Origin: an uncultured Anaerolineaceae bacterium
GTDB lineage: Bacteria; Chloroflexota; Anaerolineae; Anaerolineales; DRMV01
DNA length: 64,000 nt
Reading direction: 5' to 3'
Assembly (NCBI GenBank): GCA_964435005.1
Contig: CAYSXA010000001.1
Span: forward strand, 2,237 to 66,236
Part shown: piece by piece, positions 35,572 through 56,466 of the stretch
Layout of the letters: each line of letters begins with the position of its first letter
How positions within the stretch are numbered: the stretch's first letter is position 1
Made by a program: the position numbers and the translations under genes
Notes under the pieces: generated by a model
Seen by the model: only the letters and a program-made list of their open reading frames with translations
The model's database searches: none
Told to the model about the DNA's origin: nothing

Positions 35572-36446
35572 TCATTGATTTTCACATCCACCTCAGCCGC
35601 CCGGAGCACGAGCGGCCCTGGGTGATGGAGTGGATGCGGAAGAACTTCTCTGGCGACCTGGACGCTCTGATGGAGCAGGTGCTCACGCCGGAGGGGATGC
35701 GTCGCACTCTGCAGGAGTACGGGATCGATTACGCCGTTGGGCTGGCGGAGGTCTCGCCCCTCACCACCGGCGTGGCGGATAACGACTTCGTAGGACGCTT
35801 CTGCCGCCAGGCGAACGCCCTGCCCGACCCACCAGAAGGCCCCAAAGGGCGGCTGATCCCTTTTGCCAGCATCAATCCCTACATCGAAAACGATCTGGCC
35901 GCTGAACTGGAGCGCGTGGTGCAGGAATGGGGCTTTCGCGGCGTGAAGTTGTATCCGGTGTACCAGTATCACTACGTGAACGAGCCGCGCATGTACCCGC
36001 TGTATGCCAAAGCGCAGGAACTGGGGCTGCCGGTGCTGGTGCACACCGGGTCGTCGGTTTTCAAGGGCGCACGCATCAAGTACGGCGATCCACTGCACCT
36101 GGACGATGTGGCGATTGACTTCCCGAACCTGACCATCATCATGGCGCACTCCGGGAGGCCGTTCTGGTACGAGCAGGCGTTCTGGATGGCGCGACGGCAC
36201 GATAACGTGTACATGGAGGTCTCCGGCCTGCCGGGCAAGAAGTTGCTGGAGTACTTCCCTCGGCTGGAGAAGTTGGCGCACAAGGTGATCTACGGCTCCG
36301 ACTGGCCGGGCAATCCCGACCTGCGGCGCAACGTGGAGGCCATCCGCGGCTTGCCGATCTCGGAGGAGGCCAAGTGGCTGATCCTGTACGGAAACGCGGC
36401 GCGGATTCTCGGCCTGGAAGGTGAAACGGGCACCACGTCCCGGTAG
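35568..36446 (+). CDS. Amidohydrolase_2 (ACMSD/LigI-type TIM-barrel metal-dependent hydrolase/decarboxylase) family protein
   Basis: GTGA overlap. VIIDFHIHL..., ...VLVHTG..., ...IIMAHSG..., ...YGSDWP metal-ligand pattern. Confidence 0.78.
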
Positions 36447-36477
36447 GAGAGGTGACTCTCACCTGAGGAGGTATTGG

Positions 36478-38226
36478 ATGAAAGAGTTCCTGTTGGGCAA
36501 TCAGGCCATTGCGCGCGGTGCATGGGAGGCCGGCGTGACCTTCGCTGCCGGTTATCCGGGTACGCCGAGCACCGAGATCATCGAGACGCTGGCGGCGCGC
36601 TACCCGGAGACCAACCCGCGCTGGTCGGCCAACGAGAAGGTGGCCTTCGAGGAGGGGATGGGGGCGGCCATCGGCGGCCTGCGCGTGCTGGTGACCATGA
36701 AGCACGTCGGCCTGAACGTGGCTGCCGACGCGTTCATGGTTTTCCCTTACGCGGGAACCAACGGCGGTTTTGTTTTCATATCTGCTGGCGACCCCGGCAT
36801 GCACTCCTCGCAGAACGAGCAGGACAACCGCTACTTCGCCCGTATGGCGAAAGTGCCCATGCTTGAGCCCAGCACGGCGCAGGAGTGCAAGGATTTCGTG
36901 ATCCAGGGGCTGGAACTTTCGGAGCAATTCGGCACTCCCGTGATGCTGCGCACCACCACCCGCCTGGCGCATCACAAGGGGCTGGTGGAACTCGGCGAGC
37001 GTAAGGAAGTGCCCAAACGGGATTTCGACCCCGACCCAAAGCGTTTTTCGGTGCCCATCTACCGTAAACTGCTGCGCCCGCACGTGGAGGAGCGCCTGCA
37101 ACAACTGAAGCAGTACGCCGAAACCGCGCCCTTCAACCGTGTGGAGCACGCCGATAGTTCAATTGGCGTGGTCACCAACGGGATTGCCTACCAGTACGTC
37201 AAGGAAGTGCTGCCGGACGCGGGCGTGCTGCGCCTGGGGATGACCTGGCCGCTGCCGGACAACCTGCTCAAAGACTTCTGCGCACGCTATGAGACGGTGT
37301 ACGTGGTCGAAGAGGGCGAGCCGTTCATCGAAGAGTACATGCGCAGCATCGGCATCGCGAACATCATTGGGAAGGAGTTGTTCGGCGTGATCGGCGAGTA
37401 CTCGCCCGGTCGGCTGCGGGCGGCGCTAGGGATGGGCGAGGTGCCCAAACCGTTCAGCGAGGGCATCCATTTGCTGCCGCGCCCGCCGATGTTCTGCATC
37501 GGCTGCGGCCATCGCACGGTGTTCGCCGCGCTGCGCCAGTTGAAGGCCACCGTGGCGGGTGATATTGGCTGCTACACCATGGGCGCGCTGCCGCCGTATG
37601 AGGCCGAGCACCTGACCTTCTGCATGGGTGCCAGCATCGGCACGGCGGTTGGGCTGGAGCAGGCCGGTCAGGATCGTACGGTGGCGATCATCGGCGACTC
37701 CACCTTCGTGCACGCCGGCATCCCACCGCTGATTGACGCAGTCTATAACCGGAGCAACCTGACGTTGATCATCCTGGATAACTCGGCGACCGGTATGACC
37801 GGCGCGCAGCCGCACCCGGCGGCGGGCAAGAACGCGCGCGGCGAGGAAGCGCCCAAGCTCGACCTGGCGGCCATTTGCAAGGCGTCTGGTGTGCAGCACG
37901 TCCAGGTGGTGGATACCTGGGATCGACGTGAAGTGGTGCGCTCCATTCGCAAGGCGATGCGCACCGACGGGCCGGCGGTGGTCATCGCGCAAGGCCCGTG
38001 CCAGCAACTGCCGGAGATGAAGCGCCGCAAGATCATCCCCTATATGGTGGAAGAGGAACTGTGTACGCAGTGCGACGCCTGTTTTAAGGTCTGGTGCCCG
38101 GCGATCAAGCGCACGGAAGCGAATTTCCCTTACATTGTGCCGGAGGAGTGCACCGCCTGCACTGTGTGTGCGCAGGTGTGCCCGACCGATGCCATTCACC
38201 TGGCCGACATGGCGGTGGCTGTCTGA
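36478..38226 (+). CDS. iorA: Indolepyruvate (arylpyruvate):ferredoxin oxidoreductase alpha subunit, copy 1
   Basis: LLGNQAIARGAWEAGVTFAAGYPGTPSTEI, GDPGMHSSQNEQDNR, TPP-binding GDSTF, C-terminal 2x CxxCxxC..CP. SD GAGGAGG plus ATG 36478. Confidence 0.9.
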   Translation: MKEFLLGNQAIARGAWEAGVTFAAGYPGTPSTEIIETLAARYPETNPRWSANEKVAFEEGMGAAIGGLRVLVTMKHVGLNVAADAFMVFPYAGTNGGFVFISAGDPGMHSSQNEQDNRYFARMAKVPMLEPSTAQECKDFVIQGLELSEQFGTPVMLRTTTRLAHHKGLVELGERKEVPKRDFDPDPKRFSVPIYRKLLRPHVEERLQQLKQYAETAPFNRVEHADSSIGVVTNGIAYQYVKEVLPDAGVLRLGMTWPLPDNLLKDFCARYETVYVVEEGEPFIEEYMRSIGIANIIGKELFGVIGEYSPGRLRAALGMGEVPKPFSEGIHLLPRPPMFCIGCGHRTVFAALRQLKATVAGDIGCYTMGALPPYEAEHLTFCMGASIGTAVGLEQAGQDRTVAIIGDSTFVHAGIPPLIDAVYNRSNLTLIILDNSATGMTGAQPHPAAGKNARGEEAPKLDLAAICKASGVQHVQVVDTWDRREVVRSIRKAMRTDGPAVVIAQGPCQQLPEMKRRKIIPYMVEEELCTQCDACFKVWCPAIKRTEANFPYIVPEECTACTVCAQVCPTDAIHLADMAVAV

Positions 38227-38238
38227 GGAGGTGCGAGC

Positions 38239-38829
38239 ATGAGCAAAGTGTACAGCCTGATGTTTGCCGGTGTGGGCGGCCAGGGGTCGCTGACGGCGGC
38301 GGAAATCACCTCGCTGACCGCTGTGTTGGCCGGGTACGATGTGAAGCAAACCGAGGTGCACGGCGTGTCCCAGCGCGGCGGGAGCGTGGAGACACACGTC
38401 CGCTTTGGTGAGATGGTCTATTCGCCCACAGTCACCCCCGGCGAAGCCGACGTGGTTGTCGCGCTGGAGAAACTGGAAGCGCTGCGCTTCGCCCACTACG
38501 TGGATCGGGAAGGTGGCACGGTGCTGGTGAACGACTTTGAGATCGTGCCTGCCTCGGTCGCCAACGCGGCGGAGTTGTATCCCCATCACGCGCTGGAATA
38601 TCTGCAACAACAGGGCGTGCGGCTGATGGTGGTGCCCGCTTCGGAGATCGCCCGCGACCTGGGCGATGTGCGCATGACGAACGTGGTTATGCTCGGTGCG
38701 CTCTCCACCCTGCTGCCCTTGCCGGAAGAGACCTGGCTTAAGGCACTGCGGATGCGTCTGCCGAAGAAAATCCTGGAACCCAATTTGAAGGCTTTTGCTG
38801 CCGGTCAACAACTGCGGCAAAGTGCATAG
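38239..38829 (+). CDS. iorB: Indolepyruvate:ferredoxin oxidoreductase beta subunit, copy 1
   Basis: FAGVGGQGSLTAAEI...VHGVSQRGGSVETHVRFG. 196 aa. Confidence 0.9.
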   Translation: MSKVYSLMFAGVGGQGSLTAAEITSLTAVLAGYDVKQTEVHGVSQRGGSVETHVRFGEMVYSPTVTPGEADVVVALEKLEALRFAHYVDREGGTVLVNDFEIVPASVANAAELYPHHALEYLQQQGVRLMVVPASEIARDLGDVRMTNVVMLGALSTLLPLPEETWLKALRMRLPKKILEPNLKAFAAGQQLRQSA

Positions 38830-40268: not shown

Positions 40269-41531
40269 ATGAACACCAGGTGGTTAAAAGTTTTGATTGT
40301 GCTGACCGTGATCAGCCTGTTCGCGGCGGCATGCGGAGGCGGCAAAGCCACTCCCACCCAGGCGCCCGCGCCTGGTCAGACGGAAGAGACTCAGAAGGTC
40401 GGCACCACCTATAAGATCGGCTTCATGGCCGCTATCACGGGCAAAGCCGCCTTCCTCGGTGAGCCGGAGCGCGACGCGGCCCTGATGGTCATCGAGCAAC
40501 TCAAGAAGCAGGGTGGTGGTGTTGTTGGTCCAGATGGCGTCTTCCATCCGGTGGAGATCATCATCGAGGACACCCAGGGTAACCCGGACACCGGCATCGA
40601 ACTGGCGAAGAAGTTCATCAACCAGGATCAGGTGGTGGTCATCGTGGGCGGCACCCGCAGCCCGGTGAGCGTGCCGGTGGCGGTCTCTGTGATCGAGAAC
40701 GCCAATACGCCGTTCATCTCGATGGCTTCCAGCAGCGCCATTGTGGAGCCGGTTGAGGAGCGGCACTGGACCTTTAAGACCCCGCAGAGCAACAAGCACG
40801 TGGCTCCGCTGCAGGTGAGGTATTTGCAGGCGTTGGGCATCACCAAGATCGCCAGTCTGTATGTGAACAATGCCTTCGGTGAGGACTCGCGCCAGGCGCT
40901 GTACGATGCTATCCAGGGCACCGGTATTGAGATTGTGGTGGAAGAGTCCTTCGAGGCGGACGATACCGACTTCACCTCCCAACTGACGAAAGTCAAAGCC
41001 AGTGATGCCCAGGCGCTGGTGGTGCACGCGATCCCGCCGGCGGCGTCCACCATCACCGTGCAGTTCCGCGAGCTGGGGCTGGACATCCCGTTGATCCATA
41101 ACCACGGCGTGGGAATGAAACCCTTCATCGACCTGGCGGGCGAAGCTGCCAATGGCGTGGTTTTCCCCATCGGCAAGATGATCGGCGCGGAGAACCTGCC
41201 TGATGACGACCCGCAGAAACCGGTGTTGCTCCAGTTCATCAAAGATTACGAGGCATTCTCCGGCAAACAACGCAGCACCTTCGCCGGGCACGCCTGGGAC
41301 GGTTTGCAAATCGCCCTGAAGTGTCTGGAAAGCCTGCCGGATGGCATCTCGCTGGAGGAACAGCGCTCGCGCTGCCGGGACACCATCGAAAACATGACCT
41401 TTATCGGCACGGGCGGTGTCTTCCACTTCTCGCCGCAAGATCATGTCGGCCTGAGTTCGGACGACCTGATCATGGTGGAAGTGGTGAACGGCGACTGGGT
41501 GTATCTGCCTGAGGAGGAATGGGGCAAATAG
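40269..41531 (+). CDS. Liv-type (cluster-4) ABC transporter periplasmic solute-binding lipoprotein
   Basis: Lipobox LFAAAC plus a Thr/Pro linker. YKIGFMAAITGKAAFLGEPERDAA is typical of LivK/Leu-Ile-Val-binding-family proteins. Confidence 0.85.
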   Translation: MNTRWLKVLIVLTVISLFAAACGGGKATPTQAPAPGQTEETQKVGTTYKIGFMAAITGKAAFLGEPERDAALMVIEQLKKQGGGVVGPDGVFHPVEIIIEDTQGNPDTGIELAKKFINQDQVVVIVGGTRSPVSVPVAVSVIENANTPFISMASSSAIVEPVEERHWTFKTPQSNKHVAPLQVRYLQALGITKIASLYVNNAFGEDSRQALYDAIQGTGIEIVVEESFEADDTDFTSQLTKVKASDAQALVVHAIPPAASTITVQFRELGLDIPLIHNHGVGMKPFIDLAGEAANGVVFPIGKMIGAENLPDDDPQKPVLLQFIKDYEAFSGKQRSTFAGHAWDGLQIALKCLESLPDGISLEEQRSRCRDTIENMTFIGTGGVFHFSPQDHVGLSSDDLIMVEVVNGDWVYLPEEEWGK

Positions 41532-41588: not shown

Positions 41589-42482
41589 ATGACCGCGTAT
41601 GCTTTTTCGGATTACCTTCAGTTTGTGCTCTCAGGGGTTTCCACGGGGAGTATTTACGCCCTGATCGGGCTGGGCTTCGTGGTGATCTTCAACGTGACTG
41701 GCGTGATCAACTTTGCTCAGGGCGAGTTTGCTATGCTGGCGGCCATGCTGGCGAACACCCTGGTGGAGGCGCATCTGCCGCTGCCGGCGGCGTTCCTGAT
41801 CTCGGTGCTGGTGGTGCTGGCGGTCGGGGCGCTGGTGGAGCGCACCACCATCTACCCGGCGCGACATTCCTCGACGGTCACGTTGATCATTATCACCATC
41901 GGCCTGGACATCACCATTCGGGGCATTGCGTTGCTGATCTGGGGCACCACGCCGCACCGGTTGCCGGTGTTCACCAAAGGGCCGCCGTTGGAAATTTTCG
42001 GCGCGGTGCTCAGCCTCCAGCGCCTGTGGATCATGGGCACGGCGGTGGTGCTGTTGATTGGTCTGTACTTTTTCTTCTATCATACGTTGATCGGCAAGGC
42101 CTTTCGCGCCTGCTCCATCAACCGGCGCGCGGCGCGGTTGATGGCGATCTCCCCCAACCGGATGTCGGTGATGGCCTTCACGCTGAGCGCCGGGCTGAGC
42201 GCAGTCGCAGGCATAGTGATCGCCCCGCTCAGTCTGGTGAGTTACGATGTGGGGCTATCCTGGGGGTTGCGAGGGTTTGTGGCTGCCGTGATGGGCGGCT
42301 TCACCGACCCGTTGGGTACGGTGGTCGGCGGGGTGCTGATTGGCGTGCTGGAATCCCTCAGCGCCGGCATGGTCTCTTCGGATTGGAAGAACGCCATTGC
42401 CTTCGTGGTGCTCATCCTGATCCTGTTTGCAAGACCCCAGGGCCTGTTCGGTCGGCGCGAGACCGCCAGGGCCGGGTTGTAG
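41589..42482 (+). CDS. Liv-type ABC transporter permease (LivH-like)
   Basis: 297 aa polytopic. YALIGLGFVVIFNVTGVINFAQGEF motif. Confidence 0.88.
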   Translation: MTAYAFSDYLQFVLSGVSTGSIYALIGLGFVVIFNVTGVINFAQGEFAMLAAMLANTLVEAHLPLPAAFLISVLVVLAVGALVERTTIYPARHSSTVTLIIITIGLDITIRGIALLIWGTTPHRLPVFTKGPPLEIFGAVLSLQRLWIMGTAVVLLIGLYFFFYHTLIGKAFRACSINRRAARLMAISPNRMSVMAFTLSAGLSAVAGIVIAPLSLVSYDVGLSWGLRGFVAAVMGGFTDPLGTVVGGVLIGVLESLSAGMVSSDWKNAIAFVVLILILFARPQGLFGRRETARAGL

Positions 42483-42492
42483 GAGCCTTGTC

Positions 42493-43509
42493 ATGATGCA
42501 AACCCTGTGGAGCGAACACAAACGCGAGATGGAGGTGGCGCTGCTCGCTCTGCTGATGGGGCTGATCCCGCTGGTGGATCGCAGCCCGTACCATCTCTCC
42601 ATTCTGATCCGGATCGGTATATTCACCCTGCTGGTCATTGGGTTGAACCTGGTGATGGGCTACGCCGGGCAGATTTCGCTGGGGCATGCCGCGTTCTACG
42701 GGCTGGGCGCGTACGCCTCGGCCATGACCACGGTGTATTTGCATCTCAACCCCTGGCTGGCGATGGTGCTTGGAATGATCTTCACCGGCCTGGTCGCTTT
42801 TCTGATCGGCATCCCCATCTTCCGCCTGAAGGGACACTACCTGGCGATGGCTACGCTGGGCTTCGGGGTCATCGTGCATCTGATGTTCAAGCAGTTCCTT
42901 AAGAAATGGACAGGCGGGCCGACTGGCCTGCCGGGGGTGCCGTATCTGTCGGTAGGTTCGCTGGTGTTCGATAACGACGTGCGCTATTTCTACCTGGTCT
43001 GGTTCTTTGTGGTGGTGGTGATGGTGCTGGCGCTCAACCTGGTGCACTCGCGGATTGGACGGGCGCTGCGATCCATCCACGGTAGCGAGGTGGCGGCGGA
43101 GTCGCTGGGGGTGGACACCGCGCGCTACAAACTCCAGGTGTTGATCGTAAGCGCGATGTTTGCCAGCCTGGCAGGCTCGCTGCGCGCGCACTACAACCTG
43201 CACGTCAGCCCGTCGTCGTTCTCCTTCATCAGTTCGGTGGAACTGGTGGTGATGTCCGCCGTGGGTGGGCTGGCGAGCATCTGGGGCGCGCCGTTCGGTG
43301 CCGGGGTGGTGCATCTCATCCGTCCTTTGATGCGCGAGATCATGCCGCGCTTGCTGAACTTCCGCTCTGGAGAGTACGAATTGATCGCCTATGGCGTGAT
43401 TCTGGTGGTCATTATGATTGCCATGCCGGAGGGGTTGGTAGCCGGCGCAATAAACCTGTTGCGCCGCTGGCAGCGGAGAAAGGAGGTCAAGGGCGATGTA
43501 TCAACCTGA
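42493..43509 (+). CDS. Liv-type ABC transporter permease (LivM-like)
   Basis: LNLVMGYAGQISLGHAAFYGLGAY motif. ATG 42493. Confidence 0.88.
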   Translation: MMQTLWSEHKREMEVALLALLMGLIPLVDRSPYHLSILIRIGIFTLLVIGLNLVMGYAGQISLGHAAFYGLGAYASAMTTVYLHLNPWLAMVLGMIFTGLVAFLIGIPIFRLKGHYLAMATLGFGVIVHLMFKQFLKKWTGGPTGLPGVPYLSVGSLVFDNDVRYFYLVWFFVVVVMVLALNLVHSRIGRALRSIHGSEVAAESLGVDTARYKLQVLIVSAMFASLAGSLRAHYNLHVSPSSFSFISSVELVVMSAVGGLASIWGAPFGAGVVHLIRPLMREIMPRLLNFRSGEYELIAYGVILVVIMIAMPEGLVAGAINLLRRWQRRKEVKGDVST

Positions 43510-44773
43510 TCTGGAGAGCCTGTCGCGTGAGACGTTGCAGGCGCTGCAACTGGATCGGTTGCGAGCCACGCTGGCGCGCATTCACGCGCGCAACCCGGAG
43601 TACGCCGCCCGCCTGGGAGGGCTGGGGCCGGACGATGTGCACAGCCTGGAAGACATCCGCAAGTTCCCCTTCCTGACCAAAGAGGATTTGCGCAAGGCGT
43701 ACCCCTTCAGGTTCGCCTGCGCGCCGCAGACGGACTTCGTGCGGATGCACATGAGTTCCGGCACTACCGGAACGCCTGTGATCTGTCCGTTCACCGAAGC
43801 GGATGTGGAGCAGTGGAGCGAGATCATGGCTCGCTGCCTGACGGCGGCGGGCGTTACACGCGAGGATGTGATCCAGATCACGCCTTCATTTGGGTTGTTC
43901 AACGGAGGGTTTGGCTTTCACTACGGCGCCAGCGCCATCGGAGCCATGATCATCCCCTTCGGGCCGGGGCGCACCTCCATGCAATTGCAATTCATGAAAG
44001 ACCTGGGAACCACAGCCATCGGTGCCATTGCTTCTTATCCGCTGCGGTTGATGGAGGTGGCTGCCCAGGAAGGTTTCGACTTCCGCCGCGATACTCGACT
44101 GCGCGTGGGCATCTTCGGCGCGGAGACCTGGAGCGACGAGATGCGCCAACGCATCGAGGAGGGAATGGGCATCGAAACCTTCGACATTATTGGCATGACA
44201 GAGACCGGTGGCGTGGGCCTGGGCATTGATTGTGCGGAGCATAACGGTATTCACGTTTGGGAAGACCATTACCTGGTGGAGATTGTGGACCCGCAAACCG
44301 GCGAACCGCTGCCCGACGGCGAACTCGGCGAGATGGTGGTGACTACCCTGACGCGGGAAGGGTTGCCGGTGATCCGTTTCCGCACCCATGACCTGACCCG
44401 CATCCTGAGCCGTGAGCGTTGTGCCTGCGGGCGCACCGGCCTGCGGGTGGATCGTATCCTCAGCCGGACAGACGATATGATCAAGGTCAAGGGGGTGAAT
44501 TTCTTCCCCCGCCAGGTGGAGAGCGTGCTGCTTCAGCATCCTGAGGTCGGGAACGATTACCTGATCGAAGTCGAGCGTGTGGCTGGCGCAGATCATATGC
44601 GGGTTTCGGTGGAAGCGCCGGAAGCGGTGCACCAGACAGCGCTGGCGCAGCAGATCGAGGACGAGATCCACACCCTGTTGGGGTTGCGTGTGGAGGTGCG
44701 GTTACTGCGTCCCGGCGAATTGCCGCGTCTGCCGGGGAAGGCCGTCCGCGTGAAGGACTATCGTCGGAAGTAA
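43496..44773 (+). CDS. paaK: Phenylacetate-CoA ligase family (PaaK-like), copy 1, embedded between ABC permease and ATPase genes
   Basis: [47 protein letters not shown]. 425 aa. Confidence 0.9.
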
Positions 44774-44776
44774 AGG

Positions 44777-45625
44777 ATGGATATGTCGGTAGAAGTGTTG
44801 CTTTCCGCAAAGCAGATACGTAAAACCTTCGGCGGCGTGCTGGCCGTTAACCGGGTGGATTTCGAGGTGCGGCGCGGCGAAATTCTGGCGTTGATCGGAC
44901 CCAACGGCGCGGGTAAGACCACCATTTTCAACCTGATCACGGGTTTTCACCGGCTGGACGGTGGAGAGATCACCTTCGAGGGGGAACGTATTGACCATCT
45001 GCTACCGCATCAGATCGCCGCGCGCGGCATTGTGCGCACCTTCCAGAACCTGCAAATCTTCCACAACATGACGGTGCTGGAGAACGTGATGGTGGGTCTG
45101 CATCGCAGCGGACGCAGCGGACTGGTGGAAGCCATGCTGCGCCTGCCGCGCGCGAGTCGGGAGGAGCGTCGCTTTCGTCAGTACGCGCGCGACATCCTGG
45201 CGATGTTCGGCCTGGCCGACCAGGCCGAACTGCCCGCTGGCGCGTTGCCCTTTGGCAAGCAGCGCTTGCTGGAGATCGCCCGCGCGCTGGCCGCCCGCCC
45301 TCGTTTGCTGATGCTCGACGAACCGGCTGCCGGGCTGACCACCACGGAGACGATTGAACTGGACGAGATCATCCAGCGCCTCCGCGAAAACGGCCTGACG
45401 ATTTTCCTGGTGGAGCACGATATGGACCTGGTGATGGGCATTGCCGATCGGGTAGTGGTGCTGCACTACGGAACCAAACTGGCCGATGGCACGCCATCCG
45501 AGGTGCAAAACAACCCGGCAGTCATCCAGGCGTATTTGGGCACCGACTGGCAGGGCGATACCCGTCTGTTCTGGGAGCCCACGCCGCCTTCTCACGCTTC
45601 GGATGTGGAGGTGCCCCATGCTTGA
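44777..45625 (+). CDS. Liv-type ABC transporter ATP-binding protein (LivG-like)
   Basis: Walker [25 protein letters not shown] signature region, LMLDEPAAG. Carries a 27-aa tail after the usual ..AYLG end. Confidence 0.88.
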
Positions 45626-46418
45626 GGTGCGCGGCATTTCCACCTTCTACGGACGCATCCAGGCGCTGAAGGAGGTCTCTCTGGAGGTGCACCAGGGTGA
45701 GATCGTCACCCTGATCGGCGCGAACGGCGCGGGCAAGACCACGCTGCTGAACAGCATTTCGGGGCTTGTCCCGCCGAAGTCCGGCCAGATTTTGCTCGAT
45801 GGCGATGAAATCACCCATCTTTCGCCGGAGGCCATCGTGGCGCACGGCATCAGCCAGGTGCCAGAGCGGCGGCAACTGTTCGGCACGTTGACCGTGCGTG
45901 ATAACCTGCTGCTGGGCGCTTACCTGCGCCTGCGTCGGGGGGATAAAGCCGGCGTGGAGCAGGACATCGAAGCGATGTTCGAACTTTTCCCGGTGCTGCG
46001 CGAGCGACATAAACAACTGGCGGGGACGCTTTCCGGCGGGGAGCAGCAGATGGTTGCCATTGCGCGTGGCCTGATGGCGCGCCCTAAGGTGCTGTTGCTG
46101 GACGAGCCGTCGTTGGGGCTGGCCCCGTTGCTGGTGCAGGAAATCTTTCGTGTGTTGCGCCGCCTGCGTGACCAGGGCACCACCATTCTGCTGGTGGAGC
46201 AGAACGCCCGTGCCGCGCTGTCCATCGCCGACCGCGCCTATGTGCTCGAAACCGGGCGCGTGGTGCTCTCCGGCTCGGCGCAGGAGTTGGTTGCCAATGA
46301 GCAGGTGCAGACAGCGTATCTTGGACGACGGAGAGACCATCCGCGAGTGCCCGAAGGGTATGTTATAACTTCCTCGGTCACTGAACAACCTTCGAGCAAC
46401 GGACAAAGGAGCGAACCC
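45618..46418 (+). CDS. Liv-type ABC transporter ATP-binding protein (LivF-like); no in-frame stop, so the ORF continues into iorA copy 2 (to 48200)
   Basis: Walker A GANGAGKTT, LSGGEQQMVAIARGL, LLLDEPSLGLAP, family C-terminus ..QTAYLG at about 46325. A 31-codon low-complexity linker then leads to the iorA ATG at 46419, in the same frame. Confidence 0.8.
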
Positions 46419-48200
46419 ATGAAACGAGCCTTGATGAGCGGAAATGAGGCCATTGCTCGCGGCGCATGGGAAGGCGGGGTGGAGGTCGCCACCGCTTACC
46501 CAGGCACGCCCAGCACCGAGATTCTGCAAAACGTGGCGCTGTATGAGGACATTTACGCCGAGTGGTCGGCCAACGAGAAGGTGGCGTTGGACACCGCCAT
46601 CGGCGCAGCCTACGCCGGCAAGCGGGCACTGGCGGCGATGAAGCACGTCGGCCTGAATGTGGCCTCGGAGGCGCTGTTCTACTCGTCCTACACCGGCGTG
46701 AACGCCGGTCTGGTGATCGTTACGGCGGACGATCCCGGCATGCACTCCTCGCAGAACGAGCAGGACAACCGGCACTACGCTCGCTTCGCCAAAGTGCCCA
46801 TGCTGGAGCCTTCGGACAGCCAGGAAGCAAAGGATTTCGTCAAACTGGGGCTGGATTTGAGCGAGCAGTTCGATACCCCGGTGCTGCTGCGTACCACCAC
46901 CCGTACCTCGCACGCCAAGACGGCAGTCACGCTGGAGGAGCGCCACCCGGTGGAGAAGCGGCCTTATGTCAAGCAGCCGTCCAAGTACGTGATGATCCCC
47001 GGCTACGCGCGCCAGCGGCATCCGGTGGTCGAGGAGCGCACGCGTAAATTGCGCGAATGGGCCGAAACGGCAGAGATCAACCGTATCGAATGGGGTGACC
47101 GCTCGCTGGGCATCATTTCCTGTGGCGCGGCGTACAACTACGCGCGCGAGGTGTTCCCCAACGCCTCGTTCCTGAAACTGGGCATGGTCTGGCCGTTGCC
47201 GGAGCGGCTGATCCGCGAGTTCGCCGAGGGCGTGGAGCGGCTGGTGGTGATCGAGGAACTGGATCCCTTCATCGAAGAGTGGGTGCGTCAGATGGGCATC
47301 CCGGTGGAAGGGAAGAACATCTTCCCGCTGGTGGACGAATTGACGCCGGAGCGGGTGCGGCATGCGGCCATCGAAGGTGGGCTGCTGAGCAAGAATGGCG
47401 GCAACGGACACGGTCCCACGCCCTCGGATTTGCCGCGCCGTCCGCCGGTGCTGTGCGCCGGGTGTGGGCACCGTGATGTGTACTGGGTGCTGCGCAAGAT
47501 GAAGGTGACGGTGAACTCGGACATCGGCTGTTATGCGCTGGGCGTGTTGCCGCCGCTGGACGCCACCGACACTATCGGCGCGATGGGCGCCAGCATTGGC
47601 GTGGCGATGGGTATGCGGCACGCCGGTCTGGAGAAGGGCAACGTGGCGACCATTGGCGACAGCACCTTCTTCCACGCCGGGCTGCCCGCGCTGGCGACGG
47701 CGGTCTATAACAACACGCCGATCACGGTGGTAGTGGTGGACAATCGCACCACCGGTATGACCGGTCATCAGGGCAACCCGGCTTCTGGCGAGACGCTGAA
47801 GGGCGAGGAAGGTAAACGCATCGACATCGCTGCTGTGTGCCGCGCGATGGGCGTGGAGTTCGTCGAAGAGGTGGACGCCCGCGACCTGGAGAAACTGGAA
47901 CAGACCATCCGCGCGGCGATGAAGTTCAACGGCCCGGCGGTGGTGGTCGCCAAGACGGTGTGCGTGTTCGTCGCCAGTCACCCGCGCGAGGCGTACACGG
48001 TTGACCTGGAAGCCTGCAACGGCTGCACGATGTGCTTCCGCATCGGCTGCCCGGCGATTTACAAGAGCGAGGAGATGGACGAAAAGTACAACCGTCCCAA
48101 AGCCTGGATTGACCCGGCGCAGTGCGTGGGCTGTGGCCTGTGCTTCGACGTGTGTCCGCGACAGGCCATTGAGCCGGGGAAGGAGAAGGTGACGGTCTGA
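46419..48200 (+). CDS. iorA: Indolepyruvate (arylpyruvate/2-oxoacid):ferredoxin oxidoreductase alpha subunit, copy 2
   Basis: Own SD AAAGGAG (46405-46411) plus ATG 46419. MSGNEAIARGAWEGGVEVATAYPGTPSTEI, DDPGMHSSQNEQDNR, GDSTFFH, C-terminal CNGCTMC..CP and CVGCGLCFDVCP. Confidence 0.88.
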   Translation: MKRALMSGNEAIARGAWEGGVEVATAYPGTPSTEILQNVALYEDIYAEWSANEKVALDTAIGAAYAGKRALAAMKHVGLNVASEALFYSSYTGVNAGLVIVTADDPGMHSSQNEQDNRHYARFAKVPMLEPSDSQEAKDFVKLGLDLSEQFDTPVLLRTTTRTSHAKTAVTLEERHPVEKRPYVKQPSKYVMIPGYARQRHPVVEERTRKLREWAETAEINRIEWGDRSLGIISCGAAYNYAREVFPNASFLKLGMVWPLPERLIREFAEGVERLVVIEELDPFIEEWVRQMGIPVEGKNIFPLVDELTPERVRHAAIEGGLLSKNGGNGHGPTPSDLPRRPPVLCAGCGHRDVYWVLRKMKVTVNSDIGCYALGVLPPLDATDTIGAMGASIGVAMGMRHAGLEKGNVATIGDSTFFHAGLPALATAVYNNTPITVVVVDNRTTGMTGHQGNPASGETLKGEEGKRIDIAAVCRAMGVEFVEEVDARDLEKLEQTIRAAMKFNGPAVVVAKTVCVFVASHPREAYTVDLEACNGCTMCFRIGCPAIYKSEEMDEKYNRPKAWIDPAQCVGCGLCFDVCPRQAIEPGKEKVTV

Positions 48201-48404
48201 TTTGGAGGTGTCCGAGGTGGTAGAAGTCTCTGAGGTATCAGAGATTCAGAGGCGTCAAAGGTGTCAGAGGCGTGATGCACTGACCGCCAGGCGACACCGA
48301 CGACCATCTAGACCACAGCGACTACCACAAACCACAATGACGATACAGACAACGCTGACTACAAAGACCACGACCACCACACAGACTACACAACCGAGGT
48401 AACG
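48201..48404 (+). repeat. Low-complexity spacer with a 9-nt period: purine-rich block (TCNGAGGYR-like units) followed by a C/A-rich block (GACCAC/GACTAC-like units)
   Basis: Units such as TCAGAGGCG / TCAAAGGTG / TCAGAGGCG (about 48210-48275), then GACACCGAC / GACCATCTA / GACCACAGC / GACTACCAC ... (about 48293-48398). One frame (48202-48402, TTG start) is open across the whole spacer. Confidence 0.75.
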
Positions 48405-49013
48405 ATGACCACGAAGAACGTCAACTTTCTGCTCGCCGGTGTGGGCGGCCAGGGCACGCTGCTGGCTAGCGACATTCTGGCTGAGGTGGGGCTGCATGTC
48501 GGCCTGGACGCGAAGAAATCGGAAGTGCACGGTATGTCCCAGCGCGGCGGCGTGGTGACCAGCCATGTGCGCTGGGGCGAGAAAGTCTACTCCCCCCTGT
48601 GCGAGAAAGGCAAGGTGGACATTCTGATCGCCCAGGAACTGCTGGAGGCGCTGCGATTTGTGGATTACCTGCGCCCTGGCGGGACGGCGATCTTGAGCCA
48701 TCACCGTATTCCGCCCACGTCCACCGTGTTTGGCAGCGTGCCCTATCCCGCTGAGGATCAGGTTATGCAAGCGTTTCAGGAACGGGCGGGCAAAGTGTTG
48801 TTGATTGATGCGGTGGAGATCGCTGAGCAGATGGGCAACCGACGCGCGGCGAACACCGTGCTGCTCGGCGCGCTTGCCAGCCAGTTGGATGTGCCGATGG
48901 AGGCCTGGCTGGAAGTGGTGCTGGCCCGTGTTCCGCAGAAGTATAAGGAGGTGAACCGGAAGGCGTTTATGGCAGGCTACGAAGGTCAATGGGAACTGTC
49001 TCGACAACCGTAA
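48405..49013 (+). CDS. iorB: Indolepyruvate:ferredoxin oxidoreductase beta subunit, copy 2
   Basis: LAGVGGQGTLLASDI...VHGMSQRGGVVTSHVRWG. 202 aa. Confidence 0.9.
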   Translation: MTTKNVNFLLAGVGGQGTLLASDILAEVGLHVGLDAKKSEVHGMSQRGGVVTSHVRWGEKVYSPLCEKGKVDILIAQELLEALRFVDYLRPGGTAILSHHRIPPTSTVFGSVPYPAEDQVMQAFQERAGKVLLIDAVEIAEQMGNRRAANTVLLGALASQLDVPMEAWLEVVLARVPQKYKEVNRKAFMAGYEGQWELSRQP

Positions 49014-49084
49014 GGCTGTCTTAACGCTGACCTGTGTGGAGGCCGGCGGCGTTTAACCCATTTCTGCTGTGAGGAGGAGGAACC

Positions 49085-50404
49085 ATGCCTATCTGGAACC
49101 CTGAGTTCGAAACGATGGATCGTGACCGGTTGGCGAAGTTGCAGGGGGAGCGGTTGCGTCAGGTGGTCGAGTGGGTGTACCAGCGGGTGCCATTCTATCA
49201 GCGCAAGTTCAAGGAGGCCGGCGTCACCCCAGAGGACATCCGCTCGCTGGATGACTTGAAGCGGCTGCCCTTCACCACCAAGCAGGACCTGCGTGACGAG
49301 TACCCCTTTGGCTTCTTCGCCGTGCCGCTGGATGAGGTGGTACGCATCCACTGTTCGAGCGGCACCACCGGCAAACCGACCGTGGGCGGCTACAACGCGC
49401 ATGATATGAAAGTGTGGGCCGAGGTGATGGCGCGCACCGTAACGGCGGCGGGCGTGACGGACAAAGACATCTGCCACAACGCCTACGGATACGGCTTGTT
49501 CACCGGCGGCCTGGGCTTTCACCTGGGCTTTGAAACCGTGGGTGCGACCGTGGTGCCTATCTCTGGTGGCCTGACCAAACGGCAGTTGATGTTGATGGAG
49601 GATTTTGGCGCCACCGTGCTCACCTGCACCCCGTCCTACTCGCTGGTACTGGCCGAAGAAGCAGCAGAGCAGGGCTTCGACTTCAAGAGCCGCATGAAGG
49701 TGCGTGTGGGTATCTTCGGTGCGGAGCCGTGGACGGAGGAAATGCGTTTGCGTGTCCAGGAGAAACTTGGCCTGGAAGCCTACGACATCTATGGCCTGAC
49801 CGAGATCATCGGGCCTGGTGTCTCGGTGGAGTGCGAGCATCACAACGGCCTGCATATCTTTGAAGACCATTTCCTGCCAGAGATCATTGATCCCGAAACC
49901 GGTGAGCAACTGCCCTATGGTGAGGAAGGTGAGCTGGTGATCACCACGCTGACCAAGCAGGCCATGCCGATGATCCGCTATCGCACCCGTGACCGCACGG
50001 TGCTGCACGCCGAGAAGTGCGCCTGCGGGCGGACGATGGTGCGCATGGAGAAGGTGCGCGGTCGCACCGACGACATGCTGATCGTGCGCGGTGTGAACGT
50101 CTTCCCCTCGCTGGTGGAGAAGACGTTGTTAAGCATTGACGGTCTGGAGCCGCATTACCAGATCGTGGTGGATCGCCCCAAAGACCAGTTGGACCACCTG
50201 GAAGTCTGGGTGGAAGCCAGCAAGCGTTACTTCGAGCCGGTGGACATGCAGGCGTTGGATGCACTCAAGCGCCGCACGGAAGCCGAGCTGGCCGAAGCGC
50301 TGGGCATTCATGCCGAGGTCAAGTTGATGGGGCCGCACACTATCGAGCGCTCGCTCGGCAAAGCCAAGCGTGTGCTCGATAAGCGCAAAGTGTACCAGGA
50401 CTGA
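49085..50404 (+). CDS. paaK: Phenylacetate-CoA ligase family (PaaK-like), copy 2
   Basis: [47 protein letters not shown]. 439 aa. Confidence 0.9.
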
Positions 50405-52673: not shown

Positions 52674-53963
52674 ATGGGAATGACGTTGGCCGAAAAGATC
52701 CTGGCCGCGCACAGCGGCAAAACCGAGGTGCACGCCGGGGAGTTCGTGAACGCCAAAGTGGATCTGGTGCTGGCGTCCGAACTGTCCGGTGTGGTCGCCA
52801 TCGATGCCTTTCGCAAGATCAAAGGCGCGCGGGTGTTCGACCCGCAGAAAGTGGTCTTTGTGATGGATCATTTCACTCCCAACAAAGACATCAAGAGCGC
52901 CGAGATCGTGAAAAAGTGCCGCGAGTTCGCCCAGGAGACCGGTATCCGTCTGTACGATGTGGGACGGGCGGGCATTCAGCACGTGCTGCTGCCGGAGCAA
53001 GGGCTGGTCTCGCCGGGGGACATCATTGCCGGCGCGGACTCGCACACCTGCACTTACGGCGCGCTGGGGGCGCTGGGCACCGGCATCGGGTCCACCGACG
53101 CGGCGGCAGCCATGGCGCTTGGCGAGTTATGGTTCAAAGTACCGGAGACCATCAAAGTCGTCTACCATGGACGCCCGCGCCCTGGCGTGGTGGGCAAGGA
53201 CATCATTCTGCATACCATCAAGGTCGTCGGCGTGGCGGGCGCGCGCTACATGGCGATTGAGTACAGCGGGGAGGCGGTCGGGTATCTGCAAATGAGCGAC
53301 CGTCTGACCATGGCAAACATGGCGATCGAAGCCGGTGCGATGGCCGGGCTGTTTCAGGCCGACGAGGTTACGATGGCGTTCTTGCAGCGCGCGGGTGCGC
53401 GCCCCGGCGTGGCCTATCGGCCCGATCCGGATGCACATTATGCCCGCGTGGTGGACATTGACCTTTCCGACCTGGAGCCGCAGGTGGCCGTGCCCTATCT
53501 GCCAGAGAACAGCGTGCCGGTTTCCGAGGTGGCGGGGCTGGAGATCCATCAGGTGGTGATCGGGATGTGCACCAACGGCACGCTGGACGATCTGCGACAG
53601 GCGGCGGCAGTGCTGCGCGGGCGCAAGATCCATCCGCGCGTGCGAGCCATCATCATCCCCGGAACGCCCCAGGTGTACCGCGACGCATTGAAAGAGGGAC
53701 TGGTGGACATCTTCATGGACGCCGAGTGTGTGGTCAGTATGAGCACTTGTGGGCCGTGCCTGGGCGGGCACATGGGCGTGCTGGCCGCCGGGGAGCGGTG
53801 CGTGTCCACCAGCAACCGCAACTTCCGCGGACGGATGGGGCACATGCAGTCGGAAGTGTACCTCGCCAGTCCCGCGGTGGCGGCAGCTTCCGCCGTGGCA
53901 GGTTGCATTGCCTCGCCGGAGGACATCGGCGTTTCACCGGACGTAGTACGGGTGTATGTGTAG
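52674..53963 (+). CDS. Aconitase-family dehydratase large subunit (LeuC/HacA-type, archaeal-style about 420 aa)
   Basis: MTLAEKILAAHSGK, DHFTPN, GADSHTCTYGALGA, cluster Cys GMCTNG and CGPCLG, STSNRNFRGRMG. Confidence 0.88.
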   Translation: MGMTLAEKILAAHSGKTEVHAGEFVNAKVDLVLASELSGVVAIDAFRKIKGARVFDPQKVVFVMDHFTPNKDIKSAEIVKKCREFAQETGIRLYDVGRAGIQHVLLPEQGLVSPGDIIAGADSHTCTYGALGALGTGIGSTDAAAAMALGELWFKVPETIKVVYHGRPRPGVVGKDIILHTIKVVGVAGARYMAIEYSGEAVGYLQMSDRLTMANMAIEAGAMAGLFQADEVTMAFLQRAGARPGVAYRPDPDAHYARVVDIDLSDLEPQVAVPYLPENSVPVSEVAGLEIHQVVIGMCTNGTLDDLRQAAAVLRGRKIHPRVRAIIIPGTPQVYRDALKEGLVDIFMDAECVVSMSTCGPCLGGHMGVLAAGERCVSTSNRNFRGRMGHMQSEVYLASPAVAAASAVAGCIASPEDIGVSPDVVRVYV

Positions 53964-54022: not shown

Positions 54023-54418
54023 GTGTCGGAGGAGGAGCGGCTGCGGGCGGATCCCTTCGCCCAATCGCTGGGAGCGGAGTTGCTGAGCGTGCATCCTGGT
54101 GTGGCCAAGGCGGCCATCACGGTGTGCGAGGGACATTGCAACGTGCTCGGCTGGCCGCACGGCGGGATGATCTTTACCCTGGCGGACTACGCCTTCGCGG
54201 CGGCCTGCAACGCCGGAAACCCGCCCACCGTGGCGGTGCACATGGATATGACCTTTCTCACCCCGGCGCGAATCGGCGAGCGGTTGGAGGCCGAGGCCGT
54301 GCGGCGCGGTGGTCAGGGACGCACTCATCTCTATCGCCTGAGCGTGTACGGCGAAGACCGCCGCCTGATCGCCGAAGGGTATGGACTGGCAAGGACGTTG
54401 AAGGAGACGGAGGCATGA
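54023..54418 (+). CDS. paaI: PaaI/PaaD-type hot-dog thioesterase
   Basis: DPFAQSLGAELLSVHPG.A......CNVLGWPHGGMIFTLADYAFAAAC. GTG start. 131 aa. Confidence 0.8.
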   Translation: MSEEERLRADPFAQSLGAELLSVHPGVAKAAITVCEGHCNVLGWPHGGMIFTLADYAFAAACNAGNPPTVAVHMDMTFLTPARIGERLEAEAVRRGGQGRTHLYRLSVYGEDRRLIAEGYGLARTLKETEA

Positions 54419-55965
54419 GTTTCACCCATTTCTATCACACCACCCTGGGCGAGTTGCTGACCACCCAGGCCCGCATCCACGGCAAGCGTCCCTACCTGCG
54501 CCTGGGCGAACGCACCTGGACGTATGCTCAGGCGGAGGAGGCCGCGATCTCCCTGGCCGGGGCGCTGATCGACCTGGGGCTGCGTCCGGGCGACCGGGTG
54601 GCCGTGATGCTGCCCAACCTGCCGGAGTACGTGATCACCCTGTTCGCGGCAGCAAAGGCGGATCTGTTGCTGGTGCCGATCAACTTACGCCGCCATCCAG
54701 GCGAGGTGCGCGCCCGGTTCGAACGCACCCGCCCAAAAGCAGTGGTCACATTTTCTCAACCGGAAGAGTTCTGGGGCGTGGATCACCTGGAGATGGTGCG
54801 CACCATGCAGCCCGATTTGCCCTTCCTGGAGCATATCATTGCGCTGGAGGGCGGCGATGGCGTGCTGGACTGGGCTGCGCTCTGTGAACACGACGGCCCG
54901 CCCCCGCTGGCAGACGTCCGTCCACAGGACGCGGCGGCCATTGTTCACACGCTGGGGAGCGTCGGTACGCCGCGCGGCGCAGTGCTCACCCACGGCGGAT
55001 TGGTGCGCAACGCCGCTGACATCGCCGCCAACCTGGCCTGCACCGAGGCGGATGTCTTCCTGGGGGCGGTGCCGTTCTCCAACACTTTTGGTCTCACTCC
55101 TACCATCCTGTCCTGCACCGTGGCCGGCGCGCAACTGGTCTGCCTTCCGCGCTACCGGGCGGGGGAGGCGCTGCGGCTGATCCGTGAGGTGGGCGTCACC
55201 GTACATCACGGCGTGCCCACCATGTTTGCGATGGAACTGAACCACCCCGATTTCCGCCCGCAAGACTACGCCACGCTGCGAACCGGCATCATGTCTGGCG
55301 CGCCCTGTCCGCCAGAACTGGTGCGCCGCGTGCGCGAGCAGATGGATATCGCGCTGGTGCTGGCCTATGGCCTGACGGAAGCCTCGCCGTCGGTTGCCAT
55401 GACGCGCCTGGACGATGGCCCAATCACCGCCACCGAGACCGTGGGGCGCCCGATGCCGGACGTGGAGGTCAGGGTGGTGGACGAGCGCGGGCAGCCCCTG
55501 CCGCCCGGTCAGGAAGGCGAACTGTGCGTGCGCGGTTACAACGTGATGCGCGGCTACTGGCAGGACGACCGCGCGACCGCCGAGGTGTTGGACGCGGACG
55601 GCTGGCTGCACACCGGCGATCTGGCAGTGATCGACCCCGATGGCCCTATTCGCATTCTGGGGCGCAAGGACGAGGTGATCAACCGGGGCGGCTTCAAAGT
55701 CCATCCTGCGCCAGTGGAGATGGTCTTGCGGTCTCACCCTGGCGTGAAGGAGGCTGCCGTGGTTGGTGTGCCGGATGCCATCTACGGCCAACTCCCGGTG
55801 GCCTGCGTGGTACCTGGCCCGGGAGCCGATCTGGACGCAGACATGCTTCTGGCCTACGCTGCCGAACACCTGAGCGAAGATGCGTTGCCCTCGCGGGTGG
55901 TCTTCTTCGATGTGCTGCCGCGCCGTCCCAGCGGGGCGGTAGACAAGGCCTATCTGAGCGAGCGC
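54415..55965 (+). CDS. AMP-dependent acyl-CoA synthetase/ligase (ANL) domain; no in-frame stop, so the ORF continues into the LeuD-like domain (to 56466)
   Basis: ATGA overlap with paaI. ANL motifs AYGLTEASP, WLHTGDLAV, ILGRKDEVINRGGFKV. Atypical A3 (HTLGSVGTPRGA) and A10 (PRRPSGAVDK) motifs. Confidence 0.8.
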
Positions 55966-56466
55966 GTGCGCCTGCGCGGGCGGGCCTGGAAGTTCGGCGC
56001 CAACGTGGATACCGATGCCATCATCCCCGCCCGGCATTGCAACACCGCCGATCCGCGCGAACTGGCGCAGCACTGCATGGAAGATGCCGACCCCGAATTC
56101 GTGCACAAGATGCGGCGCGGCGACCTGATCGTGGCTGATGAGAACTTCGGTTGCGGTAGTTCTCGCGAGGTGGCTCCCATCACCATCAAGGCTGCCGGCG
56201 TGAGCGCGGTGATCGCCAAATCCTTCGCCCGCATCTTCTTCCGCAATGCGATCAACATCGGCTTGCCTATCCTGGAATGTCCTGAAGCGGTGGACGGCAT
56301 CCAGGAGGGCGACGAGATCGAGGTAGAACCCGCTACCGGCATCATCCGCAACCTGACGCGGGGTGAGACCTATCAGGCCGCCCCCTTCCCGGACTTCTTG
56401 CGGCAAATCATCGACCGGGGCGGTTTGCTGGCCTACGTTCAAGACCGTCTGGCAGGAAAGGTGTAA
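55966..56466 (+). CDS. Aconitase-family dehydratase small subunit (LeuD/HacB-type), encoded in frame with the preceding ligase
   Basis: (V)RLRGRAWKFGANVDTDAIIPAR..., ENFGCGSSREVAPITIKAAGVSAVIAKSFARIFFRNAINIGLP. A possible internal GTG at 55966, but there is no stop upstream. Confidence 0.8.
   Translation: MRLRGRAWKFGANVDTDAIIPARHCNTADPRELAQHCMEDADPEFVHKMRRGDLIVADENFGCGSSREVAPITIKAAGVSAVIAKSFARIFFRNAINIGLPILECPEAVDGIQEGDEIEVEPATGIIRNLTRGETYQAAPFPDFLRQIIDRGGLLAYVQDRLAGKV

Follow-up and report, generated by a model that had tools for sequence, protein, structure and literature searches.

In the genome of an uncultured Anaerolineaceae bacterium, the gene for a LivF-type ATP-binding cassette (ABC) ATPase of an importer lacks a stop codon and reads in frame into iorA, the gene for the alpha subunit of indolepyruvate:ferredoxin oxidoreductase (IOR). 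Here we describe this livF–iorA gene, which lies in a stretch of 64,000 nucleotides (nt) of contig CAYSXA010000001.1 (assembly GCA_964435005.1), hereafter the window, and compare it with related loci and proteins. The original prediction held that either a stop had been lost recently, giving a read-through fusion alongside an independently initiated IorA, or a functional transporter–oxidoreductase fusion exists. On the basis of the sequence comparisons reported below, we consider it probable that the gene is a genuine, translated fusion, retained after the loss of a stop, by which IOR is tethered to the importer.

The fused gene

The fused open reading frame (ORF) occupies positions 45618-48200 of the forward strand as a single frame of 860 codons, the first stop of which is the TGA at 48198-48200. 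Its start, the ATG at 45618, overlaps the stop codon of livG (ATGCTTGA). The LivF-type domain (45618-46325; amino acids (aa) 1-236 of the fusion; PF00005, E=4.9e-34) is whole through the family C terminus AYLG, ending in ...QTAYLG with G236 at 46323-46325, and its translation carries the Walker A (GANGAGKTT), ABC signature (LSGGEQQM) and Walker B (VLLLDEPS) motifs. The closest solved structure to this half is PDB 1ji0 (E=6.4e-80), in which residues 7-238 of a 240-aa chain match aa 2-236 of the query. The best-scoring NCBIfam model is the LivF equivalog NF008626; as the score of 274.7 bits falls under the 441-bit cutoff, we refer to the domain as LivF-type rather than LivF.

A linker of 31 aa follows (46326-46418, 93 nt; protein RRRDHPRVPEGYVITSSVTEQPSSNGQRSEP, DNA GAAGGGTATGTTATAAC), from which trypsin would release the peptide VPEGYVITSSVTEQPSSNGQR and, at the junction, SEPMK(R). 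Its first part, the basic tail RRRDHPRVPEGY (aa 237-248; 46326-46361), is the equivalent of the basic tails of 7-13 aa found in LivF of the seven closest unfused relatives. The remainder, VITSSVTEQPSSNGQRSEP (aa 249-267; 46362-46418), is a former intergenic spacer that is free of stops and newly coding. Within the fused ORF, a Shine–Dalgarno sequence (SD), AAAGGAG (46405-46411), stands 7 nt ahead of the ATG at 46419, which opens the IorA sequence MKRALMSGNEAIARG; comparable SDs precede the unfused iorA genes of relatives. The IorA part (46419-48200; 593 aa, fusion aa 268-860) matches TIGR03336, POR_N, TPP_enzyme_C and two [4Fe-4S] motifs, passes the IOR_alpha equivalog TIGR03336 (718.9 bits against a cutoff of 650.9 bits) and includes CNGCTMCFRIGCP and CVGCGLCFDVCP. 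Coordinates and domain matches therefore bear out what had first been noted at this junction: the missing livF stop, the complete LivF core up to QTAYLG, the 31-codon linker and an IorA start with an SD of its own.

In the linker, GC content dips to 0.51-0.54, a fall also seen in the true iorA–iorB spacer. A scan of the forward strand of the livF–iorA interval found no promoter or terminator.

In an AlphaFold2 model of the fusion, built from a 39-sequence alignment, both domains are confidently predicted, with a per-residue confidence score (pLDDT) near 90 in most 10-residue blocks. Residues 238-264 of the linker have a pLDDT of <50 and no secondary structure, and the first strand of IorA begins at residue 270; in this model, the linker looks like a flexible tether. 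Among solved structures, no IOR was found for the IorA half, which matched only distant alpha domains of 2-oxoacid:ferredoxin oxidoreductases.

The same open frame in a sister species

The exact 860-aa protein is recorded on two contigs, one of which is a 31-kb JGI metagenome contig (Ga0256915_100341) that differs from the window by 1 mismatch in 12,583 nt, at position 49080, outside the fusion gene. The 90%-identity cluster of the protein has a second member, of 861 aa, on contig CAYSRX010000054.1 of GCA_964433535.1 (L004). It is 93% identical to the window protein in the LivF part and 94% identical in the IorA part. The DNA is around 87% identical and third codon positions differ by 31%, a divergence that we read as that of a different species. 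This sister species has the same read-through (...AYLGRRKDHPRVPEGYVITSEVESIPSSNGQRSEPMKRALMSGNEA) with a linker of equal length, both in total (93 nt) and in its newly coding part; the SD is identical and the ATG is conserved. The loss of a stop relative to other livF–iorA junctions stands as originally proposed; that it was recent, in the sense of an accident within a strain, does not, as the open frame is common to two species around 13% apart.

Substitutions in the linker could be compared between these two sequences, with the limited power that approximately ten substitutions allow. One patch of five codons is scrambled (SVTEQ in one species, EVESI in the other; 11 bases changed). Outside it, nine of the ten isolated substitutions fall at third codon positions (chance of at least nine, P = 3.6e-4) and the tenth, at a second position, is a conservative change from R to K. 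In the newly coding part (codons 249-267), third positions account for all five isolated changes (P = 0.004); the 28 first and second positions that this part has outside the patch are all unchanged, against a difference of 31% at flanking third positions (P ~4e-5). True spacers nearby behave differently: the iorA–iorB spacers of the two species are essentially unalignable, and those between iorB and the following paaK-like gene can be aligned only with gaps, at around 60% identity (29 of 49 positions) when the last 22 nt, the ribosome-binding zone, are excluded. Because its length has been kept and its changes are biased to third positions, unlike these spacers, the linker appears to evolve as coding sequence. 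The two flanking halves differ by 74 synonymous and 16 non-synonymous codons (LivF) and by 164 and 37 (IorA), which indicates that both are under purifying selection. As a rough estimate, after loss of the native stop a former spacer of 19 codons would be open and in phase by chance with a probability of around 0.15. Such openness is not rare as such; it is the persistence in a second species, with substitutions of the coding type, that goes beyond chance.

The folds of both species contain a candidate RNA hairpin within the linker, on the forward strand at 46348-46398 (L004 1522-1572; UGC-C-[C/G]GAAGG ... CCUUC[G/C]-A-GCA). It shows one compensatory change between the species, from C:G to G:C, in which both substitutions are synonymous, and the variable patch lies in its loop. 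In neither species is the fold energy of the linker better than that of shuffled sequences (z = 0.04 and -0.37), and we treat the predicted hairpin as a lead only.

Junctions in unfused relatives

The original prediction proposed a comparison with orthologous livF–iorA junctions, and relative to all others examined the stop is missing in the window. We examined 15 further junctions (L003, L005-L010, L016, L021, L085-L088 and L092, plus IorA P0010 with the LivF-type protein P0310, a candidate pairing for which a common 4400-nt Logan contig is assumed from equal size alone). Relatives in which a stop is present have IorAs that are 60-84% identical to that of the window; the closest one, L004, has no such stop. 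After AYLG, LivF in the 15 unfused junctions continues for 1-13 aa, with the exception of two that have 39-49 aa. The closest unfused relatives, with IorAs 71-84% identical, have a short basic tail and then a stop: RRINQHRERNKRV (L003), RVDRHPKRKGVRP (L005), RRSNHLKKSAPL (L086), RRANHFKKPAPP (L087), KRNLRARSSLHI (L088) and RRNHSGR (L006). From these alignments, RRRDHPRVPEGY of the window corresponds to the ancestral tail. An origin by point mutation of TGA to CGA directly after AYLG was considered and rejected, since unfused L003 also has RR at this place; the basic tail therefore seems to be ancestral, and the lost stop to have lain further downstream. The two extremes of spacing between the livF stop and the iorA ATG are an ATGA overlap in L005, in which the tail codons contain the SD, and >200 nt in L085; this indicates that the position of the livF stop is labile in the clade.

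The two long tails belong to two other Chloroflexota (L016 1703-1849 and L021 2872-2988). They are rich in cysteine and share the pattern KGN[KR]xQLARCR...C...SCxxCP; this looks more like a small metal-binding extension than like a frame that is open by chance. Several livF–iorA spacers of unfused relatives contain inverted repeats, which are conspicuous in L006 (~2900-2990; ATGGCTTATCGC...GCGATAAGCCAT) and of the form GCCGCC...GGCGGC in L008, L009 and L010 (~2950-2975) and in L085 (~955-980). Such repeats could act as intercistronic hairpins through which transporter and IOR genes are expressed at different levels.

To place the gene among known proteins, 5.8 billion protein clusters were searched. 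With the whole fusion as query, the matches listed include around 120 close IorA clusters, 60-80% identical and, where a taxon is given, from Anaerolineae or Anaerolineales; apart from the cluster of the query itself and one further fused cluster (P0093), these are all stand-alone proteins of 513-615 aa. A balanced query of 530 aa (LivF, linker and the first 262 residues of IorA) placed the same two fused clusters on top, at 1167 and 674 bits, and returned no further protein with both domains down to 427 bits. In total, the two fused 90%-identity clusters hold six sequences, two in the lineage of the window and four in the other. A 278-aa query restricted to the junction was uninformative; it did not return its own protein, and targets appear to be listed only up to around 1.75 times the query length. 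None of the top 150 matches of the junction in a representative library carries both halves, a weak result since P0001 itself is not a representative and fusions may hide under unfused ones; matches with two stretches in this search are LivG–LivF double ATPases, not LivF–IorA. Among 80 species-representative loci, a LivF-type gene lies at most 3 kb upstream of iorA in 12, is directly adjacent in 8 and is fused in none. Metagenome loci supply further unfused junctions; five metagenome matches that seemed to span the junction (L086-L088, L122 and L132) were rejected, as each has a stop or a different gene downstream. P0275, P0277 and P0125, which match the IorA N terminus with 88-92% identity over 130 aa, are not orthologous junctions, as their contigs have no livF upstream.

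A second, independent fusion

The other fused cluster, the P0093 group, comprises four protein variants of 837 aa, encoded at 38% GC, in which a LivF-type ATPase is joined to IorA. Three were read as DNA: two from metagenome-assembled genomes (MAGs; GCA_037441565.1 and GCA_964505185.1) and one from a Logan contig of run SRR12999147. These proteins share with the window fusion the order of domains and the type of operon (a PaaK-like gene, a binding protein, two permeases, LivG, LivF–IorA and IorB), although they are only 53-58% identical to it. The linker, ...RAYMG-YKISDYKVEKPK-IILSGNEAIARG, is 12 aa long rather than 31 and is not homologous to that of the window. Its protein sequence is invariant. 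The three DNA sequences differ at ~9-16% of third positions, yet their linkers show one change only, which is synonymous. At the position at which IorA would start, the three DNA sequences have no ATG, GTG or TTG and no SD, unlike the window. AYMG in place of AYLG provides an in-frame ATG, preceded by AAAAGGG, 14 codons ahead of IorA (L002 6709-6717; also L168 and L169), which is possibly a replacement internal start.

The P0093 and window IorAs are 53% identical. The former is closer to unfused IorAs of Thermodesulfobacteriota-labelled and unclassified MAGs (58-60%) and the latter to unfused IorAs of Anaerolineae (73-80%); because of this, and because the linkers are unrelated, the two fusions appear to have arisen independently. 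Codon changes in the P0093 IorA are 47-89 synonymous and 18-22 non-synonymous over three pairwise comparisons. As this lineage has no IorA start at the usual position and both halves are under purifying selection, a covalent LivF–IorA protein seems compatible with function. The second option of the original prediction, a functional fusion, gains support to this extent.

Relation to known proteins

The LivF half and the LivG partner resemble those of LIV-I importers (HAAT family, TC 3.A.1.4) in fold, ABC ATPase motifs and AYLG ending, and the operon likewise includes a Peripla_BP_6 protein and two BPD_transp_2 permeases. The window protein differs in being a family member and not an orthologue of Escherichia coli LivF, as its equivalog score shows, and in having a 624-aa C-terminal extension that includes a subunit of a metabolic enzyme. 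The IorA half resembles IorAB of the 2-oxoacid:ferredoxin oxidoreductase superfamily in its IOR_alpha match, its thiamine pyrophosphate (TPP)-binding and two [4Fe-4S] motifs and the adjacent iorB; it departs from these enzymes in that its N terminus is covalently joined to an ABC ATPase. Archaeal IORs are reported to be heterotetramers (alpha2-beta2).

Several ABC importer ATPases, including MalK, MetN, ModC and OpuAA, carry C-terminal accessory or regulatory domains on the end that faces the cytoplasm, a site that tolerates additions. These extra domains are small regulatory modules (100-150 aa) that bind a ligand, whereas the addition in the window is a 66-kDa catalytic subunit with TPP and iron–sulfur sites, borne on a linker that is predicted to be disordered. 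The fusion of operon neighbours by stop loss is a known evolutionary route. In the literature searched, no paper names both iorA and livF, and topics on IOR, PaaK and ABC gene clusters gave no relevant description. C-terminal regulatory domains and the stop-loss route are known; what is new is the variant, an ABC ATPase that has twice acquired a catalytic subunit of a 2-oxoacid oxidoreductase.

Interpretation of the fusion

A sequencing or assembly artefact, such as a stop overlooked or one nucleotide gained or lost in a single MAG, might be suspected because the window is apparently metagenome-assembled, the protein occurs solely on metagenomic contigs from NCBI or JGI and the GC content over the linker drops as in a spacer. 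The separate JGI contig is identical across the gene, however, and an independently assembled genome, 13% diverged, keeps an open frame of equal length; the artefact reading is essentially refuted and its probability is negligible. It is also improbable, though slightly less so, that two separate proteins result from the continuous frame, either through cleavage of the linker after translation or through an RNA element (46348-46398) that stops ribosomes or directs processing of the mRNA. Such an account could draw on the accessibility to proteases of a linker predicted to be disordered, on the hairpin predicted in both species with its compensatory change and on the obvious inverted repeats in the livF–iorA spacer of several unfused relatives. 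Against it, the hairpin folds no better than shuffled sequence, there is no recognisable protease site in the linker, the third-position periodicity carries on downstream of the hairpin, and cutting the mRNA within the ORF would give non-stop messages and so tag LivF for degradation.

A more serious possibility, which we nevertheless hold to be unlikely, is that read-through is real and selectively neutral: a tolerated stop-loss accident in a translationally coupled pair, bound to be reversed, in which the tether is useless. The rarity of the fusion (only two fused clusters in the balanced search) and the unfused state of all other adjacent livF–iorA pairs examined agree with this, as do the labile tail length and stop position of LivF in the clade, which make accidental fusion easy, and the continued presence of the SD and ATG beside a central linker patch that varies freely. 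A neutral accident sits less well with a frame kept without stop or frameshift across two species that differ at ~31% of third positions, with the absence of first- and second-position changes outside the patch of the newly coding part, and with the independent P0093 lineage, in which the linker is invariant and the separate IorA start has been lost.

Several points also weigh against the genuine, retained fusion that we favour. The fused Anaerolineae lineage is sampled by two sequences only, so that all linker statistics rest on ~10 substitutions, and the centre of the linker (SVTEQ or EVESI) is unconstrained. Part of the linker conservation could come from RNA features, namely the candidate hairpin and the ribosome-binding zone; RNA constraint would not, though, give rise to third-position periodicity. 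Retention of the SD and ATG suggests that free IorA is still needed. A stop ends livF in 15 of 15 other orthologous junctions examined, which implies that the fusion is dispensable. As all other relatives work without fusion, the tether would not be required; we regard it as tolerated and perhaps mildly useful, through co-localisation and fixed co-expression.

We propose that, in an ancestor of the window species and its sister, the basic tail of LivF, which extends into the livF–iorA spacer in the seven closest unfused relatives, lost its stop codon, and that the former spacer by chance had no stop and shared the frame of iorA; the exact mutation is not reconstructable. Because a stop-free frame carries every ribosome that translates livF into iorA, all LivF in both species would be made as a LivF–linker–IorA protein of ~95 kDa. 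The conserved SD and ATG at 46419 would also allow free IorA to form, so that more IorA than LivF could be produced. LivF would pair with LivG under the LivHM permease, with its C terminus pointing to the cytoplasm. The IorA moiety could still join IorB and free IorA in IOR, as the linker of ~30 residues is predicted to be disordered; the enzyme would then be held against the cytoplasmic side of the membrane, beside the importer encoded in the same aryl-acid/amino-acid operon.

Operon context and other features of the window

All genes described here are on the forward strand. The operon context opens with a substrate-binding protein of a LIV/HAAT-type ABC importer (40269-41531; Peripla_BP_6, PF13458, E=2.5e-49), followed by LivH-like and LivM-like permeases (41589-43509; ORFs 41589-42482 and 42427-43509, both BPD_transp_2, PF02653), the second of which has a later start in the gene call on the JGI contig (L001) than in the ORF list. 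Between the permease and ATPase genes lies a PaaK-like aryl-acetate-CoA ligase (43496-44773; PF00501 and PF14535), which scores 403.7 bits against TIGR02155, under the cutoff of 646.3 bits. LivG (44777-45625), the stop of which overlaps the livF start, has a 27-aa tail after AYLG, as first noted, and the tail is kept in the sister species. Between the two species, the tail (45545-45625 in the window) conserves the pattern TDWQG[DE]TRLFW.P.PP...[DM][VE]VPHA, and a TDWQ or ADWQ start of the tail recurs in LivG of several relatives. Downstream of the fusion, iorB (48405-49013; IOR beta subunit; PF01558, E=3.9e-40) is a separate gene, the product of which is borderline against NF005322 (235 bits against a 237-bit cutoff). 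It is followed by a second PaaK-like ligase (49085-50404), assigned from domain and family matches; a ThiS-like protein and an aldehyde:ferredoxin oxidoreductase are also encoded in the operon. The same importer gene order is found on L001, L003 and L002. Its gene content suggests that the operon serves to take up aromatic acids or amino acids and to convert them in CoA-dependent reactions. With PaaK-like and IOR genes alongside, the importer probably carries a substrate other than branched-chain amino acids.

The iorA–iorB spacer (48201-48404) has a purine-rich half with GAGGT-like repeats and then a C/A-rich half with GACCAC-like repeats, and the GC skew changes sign between them; its predicted RNA fold has an energy no better than that of shuffled sequences. 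The spacer of the sister species has CAACCAATG-type repeats instead, together with a run of N. A second IorAB pair (36421-38829) lies directly upstream of the transporter operon, flanked by thiolase, zinc-dependent alcohol dehydrogenase, amidohydrolase_2 and HMGL-like genes; its IorA is 49% identical to the fused copy over the segment aligned by tblastn. A second enzyme–enzyme fusion in the window, the ORF at 54124-56466, joins an acyl-CoA synthetase (AMP-binding and AMP-binding_C) to a LeuD-like Aconitase_C small subunit (...RLRGRAWKFGANVDTDAIIPARH). Its real start is likely to be ‘MSFTHFYH’, ~97 codons in; a large subunit of the aconitase family is encoded just upstream of it (52674-53963).

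Implications

Fusion of operon neighbours is classical evidence of physical cooperation, and the partners here are the ATPase of an ABC importer and the catalytic subunit of a ferredoxin-dependent 2-oxoacid oxidoreductase. With only two lineages found in the search of 5.8 billion proteins, such fusions are rare; in annotation pipelines the gene will be named after one half, either as an ABC transporter or as IorA, and the second half will be overlooked. That LivF–IorA is an adaptive transport metabolon, in which IOR is docked on the ATPase for direct hand-over of substrate or for regulation of ATP hydrolysis by the state of IOR, is a speculative and doubtful proposal. If it were true, an imported aromatic substrate, or the aryl-acetyl-CoA or arylpyruvate derived from it by way of the PaaK-like ligases, would be passed straight to IOR; alternatively, like the C-terminal regulatory domains of MalK and MetN, IOR would exert feedback on the ATPase activity of the transporter according to its own state (substrate, CoA or redox). 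The two origins in different phyla would then mark a physical interaction between transporter and IOR that is non-covalent where livF and iorA are merely neighbours. Should the tether have no function, the gene would be a clean natural case of a labile stop in a coupled pair giving rise to a multidomain protein that persists across speciation. Should it be functional, import would be coupled, at the membrane of anaerobes, to the first redox reaction in the metabolism of aromatic acids or amino acids.

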